NCBI GenBank assembly: GCA_001782825.1
Contig: MFPS01000008.1
Location: 73,012 to 137,011 of the forward strand
Origin: Candidatus Magasanikbacteria bacterium RIFCSPHIGHO2_01_FULL_33_34
GTDB taxonomy: Bacteria > Patescibacteriota > Patescibacteriia > Magasanikbacterales > UBA922
Direction: 5' to 3'
DNA length: 64,000 nt
The notes under the pieces are model-generated. The model made no database searches. It was given only the letters and a program-made list of their open reading frames with translations, and had not been told where the DNA came from. Both the position numbers and the translations under genes were made by a program. Positions 6,627 to 12,885 of this stretch are shown one piece after another. Each line of letters opens with the position of its first letter. Within the stretch, counting starts at the first letter, position 1.

Positions 6627-7313
6627 ATGGGTAATTTTGATAGGGGTAACAGAAGGTCTGGTGGTGGTTCTGGTCGTAGTTTTGGTGGCAAGAGATCATT
6701 TGGTGGACAAAGACCAAGTGGACGTGATGATAGAGGTGGGCGTGATGGTGGTAGGCCAATGATGCACAGAGCTATATGTAGTGAGTGTGGAGATAGTTGT
6801 GAAGTGCCATTTAAACCAACCGGTAGTAAGCCAGTTTTTTGTAGTAATTGTTTTAGCAATCAAGAAGGTGGTCGTGATAGTCGTGGCGGTCGTGATGATC
6901 GTGGTGGACGATCTAGTAGTTTTGGTGGTGGACGGGATAAACACAGAGATCGTGATATAAATAGAGAAATGTTTGATGTTGTTTGTTCTAAGTGTGGTAA
7001 GGATTGTCAGGTACCATTTAGACCAACATCAGATAAGCCACTTTTTTGTAATGATTGTTTTGGAAAAGATAAAGGTAGTGTTGGTCGTGGCTCAAGTGAA
7101 GTCGTAGACCAAATAAAATTGTTAAACAAAAAAATCGATCAGCTTGTAGAAATGTTAAGTGCAAATGGTTCAAATAAAAAGAAAGAAAAATCTGAAGTTA
7201 AAACAGATGTAGAAGTAAAAGAACCAGTCAAAACAGTGGAAAAGAAAGAAGAAAAAAAACCAAAGAAAGAAAAAAAGCCAGCTGAGAAGAAAACAAAAAA
7301 AGTAAAAAAATAA
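6627..7313 (+). CDS. RGG/RG-repeat protein with two tandem C4 zinc-ribbon modules and a Lys/Glu-rich tail; putative nucleic-acid-binding protein
   Basis: Two copies of C-x2-C-x3-C-x-VPF(K/R)PT-x-(S/D)KP-x-FC-x2-CF (CxxC-x17-CxxC spacing). They are separated by GGRD/RGG repeats, and the C-terminus is KKEEKKPKKEKKPAEKKTKK. The DNA shows GGTCGTGAT-type tandem repeats. Confidence 0.6.
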   Translation: MGNFDRGNRRSGGGSGRSFGGKRSFGGQRPSGRDDRGGRDGGRPMMHRAICSECGDSCEVPFKPTGSKPVFCSNCFSNQEGGRDSRGGRDDRGGRSSSFGGGRDKHRDRDINREMFDVVCSKCGKDCQVPFRPTSDKPLFCNDCFGKDKGSVGRGSSEVVDQIKLLNKKIDQLVEMLSANGSNKKKEKSEVKTDVEVKEPVKTVEKKEEKKPKKEKKPAEKKTKKVKK

Positions 7314-7354: not shown

Positions 7355-8806
7355 TTATAATTTGCCTAAGTCAAGTTCTTGGTTGAATTTAATTTCTTTG
7401 ACGAATTCTGGCATATGGCTGATAACAATCAGTGCGCCTTCATAGTCATTAATTGCTTTAGCAATAATTGGGATGTGACGGAAATTTATGTGATTGGTCG
7501 GTTCATCCATTACTAAGAGTCCCGGTCTCATTAAGACTAATCGCGCAAATGACAGCAATCCTTTTTGTCCCTCTGACAAGTTTGATACTTTTACACCCAT
7601 TAAATCTCCTTTTATTAAAAATCCAGCAGCTACAGCTCTCATTTCTTGCATATCTATACCATTGGCTAATATACTTGATAGAGATTCAATCACTGTTTGA
7701 TCATAATCAAGAGTTGTAAAATCTTGACTATAATAACCAACAACAGTATCTTTCAAAATTACCGCACCTTCACTTGTATTGTTTGTAAGAGAACGTAGTA
7801 GTGTACTTTTACCTATACCATTTGGACCAGAAATCAGTAATCTGTCTTTTTGGCGCAAAATTATATTTACATCTTTGGCAACTGGTTCATGATTTTTAAT
7901 TACTTTGACTGATTTTATAGTAACTATATCTCCAACTATACCTTGAGTTGGTATAGAAAATTCTCTAATTGTTTTGTCTTCACGCCTTACATCAACTTTA
8001 TTCTCTTCAAGTTCACTTATTTCTTCTCGTAGTTTACTAGCTAATCTTCTCATTTTACCACCTTTGTTTGAAAAAAAGTTAACTTTATCTTTATTATCTT
8101 GAATCTCTTTTTCCAATTGTGCATTTTTCTTTATTTCTCTATCAATTCTTTTTTGTATTTCTTCTACTACTGAATAGTAGTCACCAACATAAGTTTCTAT
8201 TTTTTTTGTAAAAACATCTAGGTATACAACTCCTTCTGTAAAACAATTTAAAAAGTCTGCATCATGGGAAATGACTATTACAGTTTTGTTGTACATAACT
8301 AAAAATGTAATGAGGTGATCAATACCTTCTTTATCTAAATTGTTGGTTGGTTCGTCCAAAAGTAAAATATCAGGGTTTTGTATGAGAGCATAAGCCAATA
8401 AAATTCTAGCTTGTTGACCACCAGACAAGTCGCCAATTTTTCTATCAGTAGGAATAGTTAAGTTAACAGCATCCATTACTTTGCTAATTTGACTTTTGAT
8501 ATTGCCAGGTACTGCAACAAAAGCTTTACCAAAGTATTCTTCTACAGTTAAATCAAAATCTTTTTTGTCAATCATTTGAGCAGCGGTACCAATGGTTGCA
8601 TTATCTGTAATATGGACTTTGCCTTTGGTCGGGTTTAATTCACCTTTTATTAATTTGAAAATTGTACTTTTACCAGCGCCATTTTGTCCCATCAAAGTTA
8701 TTTTGGCGTCTTTGCGTACACTAAAAGAGACCTCGTCTAATACGGGTTTTCTATCTTCATATTCAAATGTGACATCATCAAATCGTAAAATTACATTTTC
8801 TGCCAT
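7355..8806 (-). CDS. ABC-F family ATPase (two ABC cassettes, no TMD; translation-factor/ribosome-protection type)
   Basis: Two Walker A motifs (GQNGAGKST; GPNGIGKST), two signature motifs (LSGGQQARILLA; LSEGQKGLLSFARL) and a charged coiled-coil linker. No membrane domain. Confidence 0.85.
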   Translation of the reverse strand: MAENVILRFDDVTFEYEDRKPVLDEVSFSVRKDAKITLMGQNGAGKSTIFKLIKGELNPTKGKVHITDNATIGTAAQMIDKKDFDLTVEEYFGKAFVAVPGNIKSQISKVMDAVNLTIPTDRKIGDLSGGQQARILLAYALIQNPDILLLDEPTNNLDKEGIDHLITFLVMYNKTVIVISHDADFLNCFTEGVVYLDVFTKKIETYVGDYYSVVEEIQKRIDREIKKNAQLEKEIQDNKDKVNFFSNKGGKMRRLASKLREEISELEENKVDVRREDKTIREFSIPTQGIVGDIVTIKSVKVIKNHEPVAKDVNIILRQKDRLLISGPNGIGKSTLLRSLTNNTSEGAVILKDTVVGYYSQDFTTLDYDQTVIESLSSILANGIDMQEMRAVAAGFLIKGDLMGVKVSNLSEGQKGLLSFARLVLMRPGLLVMDEPTNHINFRHIPIIAKAINDYEGALIVISHMPEFVKEIKFNQELDLGKL

Positions 8807-8984
8807 ATTTATATATAGTTTTTTCGTTTAATAAAAATTTATTTAGTAGATAATATCATCTCATATTTTTATGATTTTGTCAATGTTATGTGAATAAAAT
8901 TGATGTAGGATACTTGAAATTTTTATTGTTTTGAGGTATATTTCTTAGGTTACTAAAATACAAAAAGGAAGGAAGGTCTTTTAT

Positions 8985-9129
8985 ATGGACACCATTGTAC
9001 TGATTGTACTGATCTTGTTTTTGGTTAGTTCTTTGGTATATTTGGTTTTTTCAATTGAAAATGACGTTAAAAAAATAGAATTGGAGGTTGGAAAAAAACA
9101 TCGTAAATTGAGTAGTGTCGAGAATGACT
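8985..9129 (+). CDS. Small single-TM peptide (48 aa), member 1 of a four-copy sORF cluster
   Basis: MDTIVLIVLILFLVSSLVYLVFSIENDVKKIELEVGKKHRKLSSVEND. AAGGAAGG Shine-Dalgarno 9 nt upstream. Not in the ORF track (shorter than 60 aa). Confidence 0.35.
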
Positions 9130-9291
9130 AAAGCTTTATCCTTTTAATGTAAGTAATGTGAAGGTCACCAATTGATATTGGTGGCCTGCTGTATTTTAGA
9201 AGCCTTTTTGTATACTTGCCATTTTTTAAATTTAGTGTTATGTTTTAGTAGTTTTACTTGAGGTATTTTTACATATTGAGGAGGGTGATGT

Positions 9292-9408
9292 ATGCCACAA
9301 GCATTTTGGGCTATTTTATTGGGTGTGTTTATTATCGTTTATTGGGGTATTTTGATATATATATGTGAACGTGATAAAGGAGATACTCAAATTAAGTTTG
9401 ATTATTGA
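9292..9408 (+). CDS. Small single-TM peptide (38 aa), paralogue of the 9922 sORF
   Basis: MPQAFWAILLGVFIIVYWGILIYICERDKGDTQIKFDY. GAGGAGGG Shine-Dalgarno 7 nt upstream. Shares the V-F-x-I/V-x-W-G-I-x-x-Y-x-x-E-R-D/N-K pattern with sORF3. Confidence 0.4.
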   Translation: MPQAFWAILLGVFIIVYWGILIYICERDKGDTQIKFDY

Positions 9409-9446
9409 GAAATTGTGTTCTTTGACAATGACGAAAGGCGTGGAAA

Positions 9447-9899
9447 ATGAGTGATCTTGAAAGTTTGCAAAGTAGGTTGGCTGTTTTGGAAGCTTGGTTG
9501 CCTGATTTGAGTCCTGAACAGTTGATAGAGCTTGAATCAGTGAGAGAATCAATTCAAAAACTTCTTAAACTTACTTTAAATATAACTCCAGAAATAGCAG
9601 AAGCTATTAGAAAGTTCGAGAATCCAACTCCTGAAGAAATGGAAGAAAATAGGCGAGATGAAGCAAAATTTAGAAGAATATATCTACAAAATCTTGGAGT
9701 ATCAAGAGACTTTGATGATAGTGTATCTACAAAACAACCATTTGAATGTCCAGTTTGTGGTCATACAGAGTACAAAGCAATTTTACGAGGTAATGGTATT
9801 CTTGGTCCTGGTGGTATGATTATCATCACAGGGTATGAGTGTCTTGGTTGTTCAGTAAAATTTGATGATATAAGCAAGTTTTCCAAGAAAAAGAAATAG
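9447..9899 (+). CDS. Hypothetical protein with a C-terminal zinc ribbon (CPVCGH...CLGC)
   Basis: 150 aa. Helical N-terminal half, then FECPVCGHTEYKAILRGNGILGPGGMIIITGYECLGCSVKF. Embedded in the sORF cluster. Confidence 0.5.
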   Translation: MSDLESLQSRLAVLEAWLPDLSPEQLIELESVRESIQKLLKLTLNITPEIAEAIRKFENPTPEEMEENRRDEAKFRRIYLQNLGVSRDFDDSVSTKQPFECPVCGHTEYKAILRGNGILGPGGMIIITGYECLGCSVKFDDISKFSKKKK

Positions 9900-9921
9900 T
9901 TCTTCAAGGAGGAGGGATTGT

Positions 9922-10017
9922 ATGTTGAAAACTGTTTGTTGCGTTATTGCCATGGTGGTAATAGGAGTTTTTTGGGGTATTGGTGTTTACAAGCGTGAAC
10001 GTAATAAAACAAGGTAA
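9922..10017 (+). CDS. Small single-TM peptide (31 aa), paralogue of the 9292 sORF
   Basis: MLKTVCCVIAMVVIGVFWGIGVYKRERNKTR. Strong Shine-Dalgarno AAGGAGGAGGG 6 nt upstream. Confidence 0.4.
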   Translation: MLKTVCCVIAMVVIGVFWGIGVYKRERNKTR

Positions 10018-10028
10018 TTCAAACTAAT

Positions 10029-10175
10029 ATGGACATCACAAAGGTTTTGTTAGTAATATTTGCTATTGTGATGTTTGTTGGAGTAATTCTACACTTGATT
10101 AATTTCTGTAATCGTGAAAAATATATCAAAAAAATCCGTGATGATATGAAGAAGGCTGGTGAAAAGAAAGAATAA
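10029..10175 (+). CDS. Small single-TM peptide (48 aa) with a C-x-RE-K juxtamembrane motif and a basic tail
   Basis: MDITKVLLVIFAIVMFVGVILHLINFCNREKYIKKIRDDMKKAGEKKE. The ATG is 11 nt after the stop of sORF3. Confidence 0.35.
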   Translation: MDITKVLLVIFAIVMFVGVILHLINFCNREKYIKKIRDDMKKAGEKKE

Positions 10176-10430
10176 ATTTGATTGATTTGTTTTGCCTGTT
10201 CAGTTTTTGTAAAGTTCAACAAAATTATTGCCCAAGATGAGGGTTGTCAAGTGAAACAACAAGGCCATCAGCTAATGCTGGTGGCTTCTGTATTTGTGGT
10301 GTATTGCTAAGGACATATATGACAAAAACACCAAGAGTATAAAGATTATATTTAGGTTCTATAAATTGAAATGGTTGAATATCAAAAAATAATTTTTATT
10401 GTAAAACTATTGTAGCTATAGTTATTTTTG

Positions 10431-10986
10431 TGGCTCGGCGAGTGGGATTCGAACCCACGACCAATTGGTTACACGTAATCCCTAGTTTTCACTAGCGCGT
10501 GGACTATATCATCACCCTCGCCAATATCCCAAAAGGAAATTTTGAGAAAACCTGCCCATATATGACAGGACGTTAGGGTGCGAAGCGCTTCCTATCCCTG
10601 TTAATTTTGAATTAACTAGGACAGTACTCCCGTACAAAGGCCATTCACTCTTTTAGAAAGAATTCAGGCAGGGATAGTCTCTGAACCTTCACAATATATA
10701 TTTATCACGTTTATCATCTTCTAACCTTTCAATAAAGGAATTATTAGCATGGTAAGTCGTGCAGAATAAATAAATTATTGTGCTTGGCTGCAGGTTACCA
10801 TAATCTTATTATAGATGTTAGGGTCCCTGTTTTTTACAATGTACACTGTAAAAATTTTCATCTTGCGATGAAACAATTCACTTCGTTTTCACCTCGATGT
10901 TTCTATCAAGGGCTGCAAATACAATTTTGATAAATCAAAATTGGCACTAGTCACAGCCAACTGCTCTACCACTGAGCTACCGCCGA
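10431..10986 (-). tRNA. tRNA-Asn(GUU) gene interrupted in the anticodon loop by a group I intron. Exon 1 is about 10953-10986 and exon 2 is 10431-10471; CCA is encoded.
   Basis: On the minus strand exon 1 reads UCGGCGGUAGCUCAGUGGUAGAGCAGUUGGCUGU. Exon 2 reads UAACCAAUUGGUCGUGGGUUCGAAUCCCACUCGCCGAGCCA. Joined, they give a canonical cloverleaf: acceptor UCGGCGG/UCGCCGA, D-arm GCUC/GAGC, anticodon stem GUUGG/CCAAU with loop CUGUUAA, T-arm GUGGG-UUCGAAU-CCCAC, and G73. U1-A72 plus G73 plus loop CUGUUAA matches tRNA-Asn. The junction is uncertain by about 2 nt; a Thr(UGU) reading is the alternative. Confidence 0.75.
10472..10952 (-). other. Group I self-splicing intron (about 481 nt, no ORF) within the tRNA-Asn anticodon loop
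   Basis: The minus-strand intron contains the conserved R element GGUUCAGAGACUAUC and S element GAUGAUAUAGUCCAC, which form the P7 core. A candidate P1 pairs the exon end GGCUGU with intron GCAGCC, placing U-G at the 5' splice site. The intron ends in G before the 3' exon. Confidence 0.75.
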
Positions 10987-11151: not shown

Positions 11152-12885
11152 TTATAGATTAAGATCATTTAGGTCGTTTTCAATACTAAAGAAATAAAGT
11201 ATATCTCCTTTTTTGTCTAGCATGGGTGTAATACTTAATAGGGTAGAGTATTCAATTCCATTTTTATTTTTATTTTTAATTTTTCCTACAAAAGGTTTTT
11301 TGTCAGTTTTTATGGTTTTCCATAGTTTTGTGTAGAATTCTGGTGTCATAATACCACCCCATAATTGTGAAGTGCCTACTTTTTTATTTATTATTTCATT
11401 TTTGCTGTAGCCAGTCATACGCTCAACTGAATTATTGGCATATAATATTGTACCCTCTGGGTCAGTTATTACTACAGCTTCCCTAGTTACTTCTATAGCA
11501 TTTTTGAATTTTTCAAGATCCGATGTGCGTTCGTAAATTTTTTGTTCCATTGTTTCTTTGTATCGTTTGAGGACAGCAGACATACTATTGAATTCATTTG
11601 CCAAATCTCCAAATTCATCTTTTCTGTTGCCTAAACTTAGTTTATAATCTAGATTGCCTTTTTTAATTCTTTCAGCCCCTTGTATTATTTTTTCTACTGG
11701 ATTCAAAACTACTTGTTGTAAGAAAAACATCATCAAGACTACAAAGAAGATTAAAATCAATATAATCAAGGAAAGTGTTTTGAAAAATAGTATGTTTACT
11801 TTGTCTATTATTTCAGCTTGTTCTACCCTCAATATTTGTGTCCAAAATGTATCTTTATCATTTGCATATGTAAAATCTTTTGCGTCTTCAGAGCTTTGTT
11901 CACGAATACCCATGTATATTTTTTTTACATTAGCACTATAAGGGTTTATCCTATGAAAAATTAAATATGACTTATCTTCTTCATTATAGATTTGACCAGA
12001 ATCTAGTTCTTGGATGATTGGTTTTATTTGAGGGTAATCATTGAATATTGTTACATCATTTTGAGTCATAAATCCCCATTCTTTGTCTTTGTCTATATTT
12101 TGTAGGTAATATCCAAAGCTATTTACTAAGTAGATATTTTTTAATGATGAATCTTCACTTGTCATTGCCATATTCCTAATATTCATATTAGGATGGTTTG
12201 TATTGGAACCCTTGAAAGTAAAATCAGAAAATAAATCAAGAATTAATATGCCTTTTAATTGATCTTGTTCATTATATATAGGTGTTGAGTATTCTATGAT
12301 TTGGTGTTTGTTGTGGGTTAGTTTATTATCCTTTGATGTATCCATTTCTGACATATCTTCTGTAGTATTTTCAATAGTATCAGCATGTTCATCTTCAGTA
12401 ATTGATACAAATAATTCTCTTTTGTTTAGTTTCATTGTTTCATTAAAAAAATGGAATTGTTTTACATTTTCTAATTTGTTTGGTGGTCTAGATATTATTT
12501 TATTCTCTTCATCCCAATTGACTACAATTAACTCTTGTCCATTTTCATCAATTAATTCAATTTTACTAAATATCATGTTGTTCATGAGGAATGTTTTAAA
12601 TTCATCTGAAATTTTTTTATGGGCAGATATTTTTTCAAGTTGATCATCAGTATTTGTATATTGTTTTATACTAGATAGTCCACTTAAAAAATTTATTGAA
12701 GATTCGGACATAACAAGAAAATGTTCTGTAGAATTTTTTCTTAGGACTATTTCTTGTTGTCGTTCAGATATTTGTTGATTTTTTAAGATATTGGATAAAT
12801 CTTTATAAAAAACAACTGCTAATATAGTGCTTAGCATGATTGCTCCTAAAATAAAATTTAAAAATATCTTGGTATTTAGTCTCAT
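11152..12885 (-). CDS. Membrane sensor protein: N-terminal TM, extracytoplasmic sensing domain, second TM, HAMP and a single PAS domain. No histidine-kinase or other output domain.
   Basis: 577 aa. TM helices at about 7-25 and 355-380. HAMP-like segment NPVEKIIQGAERIKKGNLDYKLSLGNRKDEFGDLANEFNSM. PAS segment VITDPEGTILYANNSVERMTGYSKNEIINKKVG...WGG. The protein ends right after the PAS domain. Confidence 0.7.
   Translation of the reverse strand: MRLNTKIFLNFILGAIMLSTILAVVFYKDLSNILKNQQISERQQEIVLRKNSTEHFLVMSESSINFLSGLSSIKQYTNTDDQLEKISAHKKISDEFKTFLMNNMIFSKIELIDENGQELIVVNWDEENKIISRPPNKLENVKQFHFFNETMKLNKRELFVSITEDEHADTIENTTEDMSEMDTSKDNKLTHNKHQIIEYSTPIYNEQDQLKGILILDLFSDFTFKGSNTNHPNMNIRNMAMTSEDSSLKNIYLVNSFGYYLQNIDKDKEWGFMTQNDVTIFNDYPQIKPIIQELDSGQIYNEEDKSYLIFHRINPYSANVKKIYMGIREQSSEDAKDFTYANDKDTFWTQILRVEQAEIIDKVNILFFKTLSLIILILIFFVVLMMFFLQQVVLNPVEKIIQGAERIKKGNLDYKLSLGNRKDEFGDLANEFNSMSAVLKRYKETMEQKIYERTSDLEKFKNAIEVTREAVVITDPEGTILYANNSVERMTGYSKNEIINKKVGTSQLWGGIMTPEFYTKLWKTIKTDKKPFVGKIKNKNKNGIEYSTLLSITPMLDKKGDILYFFSIENDLNDLNL

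Follow-up and report, generated by a model that had tools for sequence, protein, structure and literature searches.

A zinc-ribbon protein gene with a conserved membrane micro-protein neighbor and additional micro-protein genes in a Candidatus Magasanikbacteria genome

In the type V toxin-antitoxin (TA) system GhoS/GhoT, a small soluble protein is encoded upstream and a small membrane peptide downstream in one operon, and GhoT has two transmembrane (TM) helices. Other small membrane proteins, such as KdpF, AcrZ, CydX, MgtS, and MgrB, are partners of larger proteins (reviewed in PMC12648545). Fozo et al. 2010 described type I toxins as proteins of <70 amino acids (aa) with a predicted TM segment and a polar, charged, or aromatic C-terminus; further criteria were an antisense or overlapping small RNA antitoxin, tandem duplication with similarity beyond the open reading frame (ORF), and a spacing of 400 and 250 nucleotides (nt) to the neighboring genes (PMC2887945). 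We compare with these systems a locus in a 64,000-nt stretch of DNA from Candidatus Magasanikbacteria bacterium RIFCSPHIGHO2_01_FULL_33_34 (contig MFPS01000008.1, positions 73,012 to 137,011; hereafter the window, in whose coordinates all positions are given). An initial annotation reported four ATG-initiated ORFs of 31-48 aa (here s1 to s4) around the gene for a 150-aa zinc-ribbon protein (here ZR). We confirm all of them, on the + strand and at exactly the positions it gave:

8985-9131, + strand: s1, 48 aa, single-TM, a monocistronic unit; ATG start, Shine-Dalgarno (SD) sequence AAGGAAGGAAGG (5-nt match), hydrophobicity 3.12
9292-9408, + strand: s2, 38 aa, single-TM, paralogue of s3; SD GAGGAGGGTGAT
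9447-9899, + strand: ZR, 150 aa, N-terminal helical domain and C-terminal C4 zinc ribbon (CPxC...CxxC)
9922-10017, + strand: s3, 31 aa, single-TM, paralogue of s2; SD AAGGAGGAGGG; starts 22 nt past the ZR stop codon
10029-10175, + strand: s4, 48 aa, single-TM, member of a conserved ZR-linked family; no SD; starts 11 nt past the s3 stop codon

We interpret the region as a two-unit cluster of ZR and a translationally coupled micro-protein partner (s4), together with lineage-specific extra micro-proteins, and give this reading about an even chance of being right. A zinc-ribbon protein paired with a conserved membrane micro-protein is undescribed, and the pair is locally elaborated in one candidate-phyla-radiation (CPR) genome. 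Small membrane proteins are almost unexplored in CPR bacteria, which have tiny genomes with many orphan genes. The locus offers a concrete, testable case: a micro-protein frame is kept across lineages with saturated synonymous sites, always coupled to one soluble zinc-ribbon partner, and in one genome ZR is surrounded by extra, apparently freshly duplicated micro-protein genes. Until a function is established, the practical impact stays modest.

The resemblance to KdpF, AcrZ, CydX, MgtS, and MgrB is that these are also single-TM proteins of 30-50 aa, encoded with or acting on a specific partner and dispensable in some lineages. Unlike theirs, the partner here is a small soluble zinc ribbon and not a transporter, oxidase, or kinase, and the sequences are unrelated; the micro-proteins have no Pfam match to the KdpF/AcrZ type, and the operon contains no gene of a membrane complex. 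The initial annotation had likened the micro-ORFs either to type I toxins or to regulatory membrane micro-proteins. The second half of this proposal fits s4, which is a conserved, translationally coupled neighbor of ZR in four other lineages, though without a sequence match to KdpF or AcrZ. The order of the ZR and s4 genes is that of GhoS/GhoT, but s4 has a single TM helix, GhoS is an RNase with another fold, and neither sequence nor fold searches gave a match.

The conservation of s4 is seen beside the closest relatives of ZR, a clade with the motif PFEC...EFSNK. These are found at an orthologous chromosomal locus. There, tRNA-Asn(GUU) occupies the opposite strand and is followed by a divergent promoter region, the ZR gene, a conserved terminator, and, mostly, a class II aminoacyl-tRNA synthetase (aaRS) gene. 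Homologues of s4 start after an 8-nt spacer past the ZR stop codon in the loci we number L105 (46 aa), L113 (49 aa), and L114/L115 (47 aa), and an SD-like sequence overlaps that stop codon (TAGGAGGG in L105, TAGGAGAG in L113, and a weaker TAGGAAAA in L114). In L104 an incomplete homologue begins 15 nt past the ZR stop codon, and the contig ends just after ATGAAGGATATC (MKDI...). Several of these ORFs were left uncalled by gene finders. The s4 and L105 proteins align over their full length (s4 MDITKVLLVIFAIVMFVGVILHLINFCNREKYIKKIRDDMKKAGEKKE; L105 MKDVILTIFAVAMLVATAGHIIQVFRRERRLRDFHRQMAEAGRKKK). Smith-Waterman scores of s4 against L105, L113, and L114 are 79, 61, and 63 (z=8.4, 5.4, and 5.3), judged against shuffles that preserve the N-terminus, TM, and tail segments; we chose these because global shuffles overstate the similarity of TM peptides. 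Synonymous sites among the ZR-s4 loci are largely saturated (pS 0.59-0.82; 0.59 for s4, 0.80 for ZR), yet frame, length, and motifs are preserved, which argues for protein-level constraint on s4. We therefore place s4 in a family of 46-49-aa single-TM proteins with significant similarity, encoded 8-15 nt past a gene of the ZR clade beside tRNA-Asn(GUU). Similarity to this family was not found for s1, s2, or s3. The window differs from the other ZR-s4 loci in having s3 between ZR and s4 and the tRNA gene on the other side of the cluster. Because ZR and s4 have the same relative frame in three lineages, we considered a programmed frameshift that would fuse them, and rejected it because an SD-like sequence precedes the separate ATG of each s4 and a slippery heptamer is not evident.

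A gene of the s4 type was never seen alone at a locus without ZR. In L106-L112 the terminator follows ZR directly and s4 is absent; loci with and without s4 thus differ by a clean indel that lies between the stop codon of ZR and the conserved terminator. ZR forms with the N-terminal domain are accompanied by an s4-type gene in 5/6 lineages, and 67-aa ribbon-only forms in 0/2. Lineages with 35-68% identity between their ZR ribbons have the same tRNA-Asn and class II aaRS neighbors, which favors vertical inheritance over a mobile toxin cassette.

ZR belongs to a real protein family, as yet unnamed. An exhaustive HMMER search recovered 122 representatives at E<=1e-3, all through the C-terminal ~55 residues, which carry the signature FxCPxCG..NGIxGPGG..YxCxGCSVxFxDPxKF (9726-9896; ZR residues ~94-150). 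No profile in Pfam, PHROGs, NCBIfam, PADLOC, or the PDB sequence profile search matched this domain above threshold, and FmdB (TIGR02605) scored 25.9 bits, under its cut-off of 31.3. FmdB, TFIIS/Rpb9-type, and phage zinc ribbons share with ZR the two CxxC knuckles on a beta-ribbon, whereas the NGIxGPGG loop and the FxDPxKF tail mark a separate family from the FmdB and TFIIS/Rpb9-type ribbons. The AlphaFold model of ZR (pLDDT 83.5) has four long helices and one short helix, followed by the beta-ribbon. Its best fold matches are an uncharacterized Caudovirales protein (E=9e-4) and TFIIS-like ribbons. Many representatives, among them distant members of the domain family, are encoded in phage-like arrays of genes; two have a fused phrog_6721 or phrog_11375 domain. 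A viral contig that carries one distant homologue (L091, IMG/VR contig 3300035698_011322) has two SD-led single-TM micro-ORFs (41 and 39 aa, at 5224-5508 of L091) ~1 kb downstream of it, one of them with the tail CVTSRRGDEYVDDKTI; their similarity to s1-s4 is not significant.

The initial annotation regarded all four micro-ORFs as paralogous and as amplified into a local family. What it observed is real and not due to chance, but a four-member family was read into it, and only s2 and s3 are demonstrably related. Theirs was the sole pair still significant in Smith-Waterman comparisons under the segment-preserving shuffles (score 48, z=6.6, p=0.002). The comparison of s2 with s4 is marginal (p=0.02, uncorrected, six comparisons), and all pairs with s1 are null. 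Against a profile of the s4 family, s1, s2, and s3 were not significant (p=0.14-0.26), nor were they in pairwise tests. The strings YICERDK, YKRERNK, and FCNREKY, which had been read as a common signature, are present. The alignment of s2 with s3 along the TM helix stands, with V12, I14, V16, W18, G19, I20, Y23, E26, R27, and K29 in common.

Several features indicate that s2 and s3 are a duplicated translational unit, ribosome-binding site (RBS) plus ORF, flanking ZR: besides the similarity that withstands shuffling, 51/93 bases are identical in register (p=0.0002), a 42-nt repeat (9337-9378 and 9967-10008, 74% identical) begins at codon 16 of both ORFs, their RBS-spacer-ATG sequences are similar, with RBS plus ORF alignable, and second codon positions are the most conserved (21/29, versus 14/29 and 15/29).

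The micro-ORFs look like real membrane micro-protein genes, beyond what chance would produce. As the initial annotation noted, each encodes a single strongly hydrophobic segment (Kyte-Doolittle mean over the best 17 residues, 2.58-3.12) and, after it, a short charged tail. On both strands of the 64 kb there are 14 hydrophobic ATG ORFs of 31-60 aa, and 4/14 lie in this 1.2-kb cluster (Poisson P~1e-5). Among the 14, only s1, s2, and s3 have an SD match of at least 4 nt. The claim of strong SDs in three of the micro-ORFs is borne out for s2 and s3 (6-7 nt), with a shorter match for s1 and none for s4. The SDs of the cluster stand out because only 3/45 ORFs of at least 150 aa in the window have one of at least 4 nt; a 6-nt match precedes 1.1% of all ATGs. 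Four of the five cluster genes have an SD, which is rare in host genes and may point to foreign origin or to a need for efficient initiation. The micro-ORFs had been described as missing from the ORF track. This reflects only a length threshold in that annotation, since all four are among the genes that JGI called on the same contig. The four peptides are also already present in public protein collections, as singleton clusters.

From a consensus scan we predict two promoter-to-terminator units, P1-s1-T1 and P2-s2-ZR-s3-s4-T2:

8914-8942, + strand: P1, sigma-70-like promoter for s1, TTGAAA-17-TATATT, 10/12 consensus matches
9162-9197, + strand: T1, intrinsic terminator of the s1 unit, 11-bp stem, 4-nt loop, T-run
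9216-9244, + strand: P2, promoter-like site for the s2-ZR-s3-s4 operon, TTGCCA-17-TATGTT with TG, 9/12 consensus matches
10262-10297, + strand: T2, intrinsic terminator of the s2-ZR-s3-s4 operon, 11-bp stem, 4-nt loop, T-run

The T1 and T2 hairpins are 72% similar (repeat D6), with paired changes in the stem, and the P1 and P2 regions are 71% similar (repeat D2). The scan returned three terminator-like sites against 0.8 expected, and all three are on the + strand. Promoter-like matches numbered 17, against 8.6 +/- 3.5 expected, and such matches are common in AT-rich DNA. A possible duplication of the tRNA-Asn promoter region on both sides of the cluster was dropped, as the alignment is weak in AT-rich DNA.

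These predictions bear on the weaker half of the initial interpretation, the analogy with type I toxins, in which small hydrophobic toxins would be repressed by antisense RNAs. We consider this highly improbable, s1 being the most plausible case, and retain it as a lead. All four micro-ORFs have the size, TM segment, and tail of type I toxins (Hok/Gef, Fst/Ldr, TisB, Ibs, ShoB, TxpA/BsrG), and further likenesses are the local duplication of s2/s3 and the tendency of such genes to be missed in annotation. The s1 gene is a stand-alone promoter-ORF-terminator unit. In its predicted mRNA, a 5′ arm that includes part of the SD (8947-8962) is complementary in 14/16 nt to 9190-9205, past the stop codon and around the terminator tail, which recalls the 5′-3′ fold-back of hok-type mRNAs. 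The SD of s1 is sequestered in the minimum-energy fold, and a minus-strand promoter-like match lies downstream of the gene at 9222-9193 (another is at 9428-9401). However, the fold has z=-3.56 with the terminator hairpin and only -1.76 without it (13/200 shuffles were as good), the cluster scan found no minus-strand terminator and no antisense promoter that stands out from the common background of such matches, and the antisense strand shows no unusual degree of structure (z=-1.25). Three of the four micro-proteins are predicted to be co-transcribed with a protein gene, the SD of s2 is predicted to be unstructured, and s4 is vertically conserved with ZR. Where Fozo et al. 2010 required 400 and 250 nt to the neighbors, s1 lies 179 nt from the flanking gene abcF and 161 nt from s2, and s2, s3, and s4 lie 11-38 nt from theirs. 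The similarity of s2 and s3 does span RBS plus ORF, but the two units flank ZR in an operon and are not independent repeated loci.

Family searches point the same way. Pfam holds models for Hok_Gef, Fst, Ldr, TisB, and Ibs. The micro-proteins gave nothing above noise in Pfam at E<=10 and no match in NCBIfam; no toxin, small-protein, phage, or defense family in Pfam, NCBIfam, PHROGs, or PADLOC matched them, including the models for Hok, Fst, Ldr, TisB, Ibs, KdpF, and AcrZ. Neither ZR nor the micro-proteins nor their orthologues matched a PADLOC model at E<=1.

The cluster lies within a segment that related genomes lack, bounded by abcF (start at 8806) and a tRNA gene:

8807-10430, no strand: lineage-specific 1.6-kb segment between the abcF start and the 3′ end of tRNA-Asn (10431)
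10431-10986, - strand: tRNA-Asn(GUU), intron-split and convergent with the cluster; exons 10986-10953 and 10471-10431, intron of 481 nt at 10472-10952

Proteins from Candidatus Magasanikbacteria metagenome-assembled genomes (Patescibacteria/CPR) share at most 84% identity with the ABC-F protein encoded by abcF. Related Magasanikbacteria are without the whole 1.6 kb: their tRNA-Asn gene is 60 nt (L032, intron-less) or 110 nt (L016, with intron) upstream of abcF, and 8807-10430 is therefore an insertion relative to them. In 80 abcF-syntenic Patescibacteria loci, tblastn and HMM searches found no homologue of ZR or of any micro-ORF. The comparison with related genomes proposed in the initial annotation is thus negative at the syntenic position, and positive for s4 at ZR loci elsewhere. 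The junction of tRNA-Asn and abcF is a variable spot in Magasanikbacteria (60-110 nt in some genomes and 1.6 kb here; others have unrelated cargo of 4-5 kb, at L019 1273-6000, L028 1814-6000, and L039 1441-6000). That cargo includes other small membrane proteins, of 52-54 aa (MKIIKIILFIL...) and a GlsB/YeaQ-like one of 82 aa.

A position at the 3′ end of a tRNA gene and absence from relatives are also what a phage or integrative-element remnant would show, with the micro-proteins as phage-type small membrane proteins (holin-like or for superinfection exclusion). The occurrence of the ZR domain family in viral contigs, one of them (L091) with small TM ORFs ~1 kb away, and an SD usage unlike that of host genes fit this explanation as well, but we find it very unlikely. 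Of the marks of a tRNA-targeting integrative element or genomic island, only the absence in relatives was found: the segment has no integrase ORF, and its left edge (8700-9300), the boundary far from the tRNA gene, has no tRNA-derived or att-like repeat of the tRNA 3′ end. The GC content of the cluster (~30%) equals that of its surroundings, with no local anomaly. The micro-proteins have no PHROG match, and the closest ZR-s4 loci are chromosomal, between tRNA-Asn and aaRS. A scan of viral contigs found no relatives of s4, and the sole viral match to the ZR-s4 junction sequence was rejected as a chance match within a large gene (591 aa). An ORF fragment beside tRNA-Asn in L105 was considered as a possible integrase and set aside, having no Pfam match. 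An Rfam scan of the region returned noise only.

For the two-unit cluster we propose the following mechanism. The conserved core is ZR followed by a coupled 46-49-aa single-pass membrane protein of the s4 family, near tRNA-Asn(GUU) in several divergent uncultured lineages. In this genome the ZR-s4 pair, within the segment that relatives lack, has gained three micro-protein genes: the s2/s3 duplicate flanking ZR, and s1 with its own promoter and terminator. When the micro-proteins insert in the membrane, their charged tail may face the cytoplasm and their very short N-terminus the outside. By the established positive-inside rule, this N-out/C-in topology is predicted for s3 and s4, which have tails of net charge +4 and very short N-termini; the case is less clear for s1 (net charge 0) and s2 (-1). 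ZR is probably a nucleic-acid- or protein-binding zinc ribbon. The tail of s4 may bind the N-terminal helical domain of ZR and so tether or regulate ZR at the membrane, and s1, s2, and s3 may be lineage-specific extra partners or modulators.

The same gene arrangement could be read as a TA-like module with a protein antitoxin. The micro-proteins, at least s4, would be membrane-damaging toxins, and the upstream coupled ZR their antitoxin or regulator, in a type II order or an architecture like that of type V GhoS/GhoT. We consider this unlikely. The antitoxin-first gene order and the tight coupling fit, as does the retention of ZR where s4 is lost while s4 is never alone downstream of a missing ZR; the local cluster is also variable and lineage-specific, and members of the wider ZR domain family are common in phage-like contigs, with fusions to phrog_6721 and phrog_11375. 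A chromosomal position conserved across deep divergence is, however, unusual for TA cassettes. PADLOC, Pfam, and NCBIfam gave no match to a TA model, an autoregulatory operator is not evident, and s1 has an SD and a promoter-like site with no adjacent ZR.

A bolder form of our own reading, which we hold to be distinctly unlikely, is that ZR and the s4-type protein form a two-component system of Patescibacteria-like bacteria that is undescribed, inherited vertically, and in physical linkage with tRNA-Asn(GUU). Either the micro-protein would control a nucleic-acid-binding ZR, or ZR would neutralize a membrane-active peptide, and in this genome the system would be expanding by micro-protein duplication.

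Several observations weigh against the two-unit cluster with a ZR-s4 core. The link between the ZR N-terminal domain and s4 is based on eight lineages, and three lineages have ZR without s4, which makes the pair non-obligatory. Fold searches with ZR gave generic zinc-ribbon matches only. The ratio of non-synonymous to synonymous change in s4, the codon-level check proposed in the initial annotation, is uninformative between orthologues (pN/pS 0.77, Nei-Gojobori, saturated). Variation in the source population bears on the same check. The window matches a near-clonal groundwater population that includes NCBI GCA_001784315.1 MFQM01000024.1 and Rifle aquifer metagenome contigs, and nine contigs of it are 99.9-100% identical across the region. 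In the 1.6-kb segment they differ by three single-nucleotide polymorphisms (SNPs; positions 9044, 9345, and 10146), none in ZR or the spacers. All three are in micro-ORFs and non-synonymous (s1 L20F, s2 W18C, s4 M40V), with no sign of purifying selection, and W18C falls in the most conserved motif of s2. With only three SNPs across nine contigs, these data are unfit for a test of selection. Finally, homologues of s1, s2, and s3 were not found outside this one population, and for s1 no relative was detected in the 80 syntenic loci, by segment shuffles, with the s4-family profile, or in pairwise tests.

The non-synonymous SNPs in s1 and s2 and the restriction of s1, s2, and s3 to one population would also be expected if only ZR and s4 were functional, and s1, s2, and s3 were very young or non-functional ORFs in a recently rearranged spacer in which hydrophobic codons arise easily. 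The + strand of the cluster is T-rich and G-rich, which favors Val, Leu, Phe, and Gly codons. Moreover, s2 and s3 use identical codons at 9/11 of their identical residues, so their similarity could reflect duplication alone and not selection. We nevertheless judge this explanation rather improbable: it does not account well for strong SDs at the correct spacing in a genome where few long ORFs have them, for the tight packing of the ORFs between promoter and terminator, for the enrichment of hydrophobic small ORFs, or for the conservation of second codon positions between s2 and s3.

A word-index search of 5.8 billion proteins returned only near-identical copies of ZR and the micro-ORFs themselves. 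This search is insensitive, as it also missed the L105 orthologue. Since it missed all the orthologues that synteny revealed, orphan micro-ORFs are best checked through their conserved neighbors.

The two exons of tRNA-Asn rejoin to a canonical tRNA that matches the intron-less gene of L032 (5863-5937); the gene of L028 is also intron-less. The intron lies between anticodon positions 35 and 36; the base at -1 is U and the intron ends in G, as is the case for group I introns. The split gene escaped both ARAGORN and the Rfam tRNA model, and Rfam gave no group I intron at E<=1. The introns of L016 (5256-5891) and L039 (833-1441) carry an HNH-like ORF of 109 and 116 aa, respectively. In eight lineages the closest ZR clade (L104-L116 and the window) is ~100-550 nt from tRNA-Asn(GUU); ZR is divergent from the 5′ end of the tRNA gene in seven of the eight, and in the window it is convergent, beyond the 3′ end.

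Directly upstream of the tRNA-Asn gene, the - strand encodes a 577-aa protein (11152-12885) with a histidine-kinase-type sensor domain, HAMP, and PAS; it stops at the PAS domain, and HisKA and HATPase domains are absent. On the other side of the cluster, the gene adjoining abcF (6627-7313, + strand) encodes a 228-aa protein with two zf_Tbcl_2 treble-clef zinc fingers, and this neighbor is conserved in many related loci (41-50% identity).

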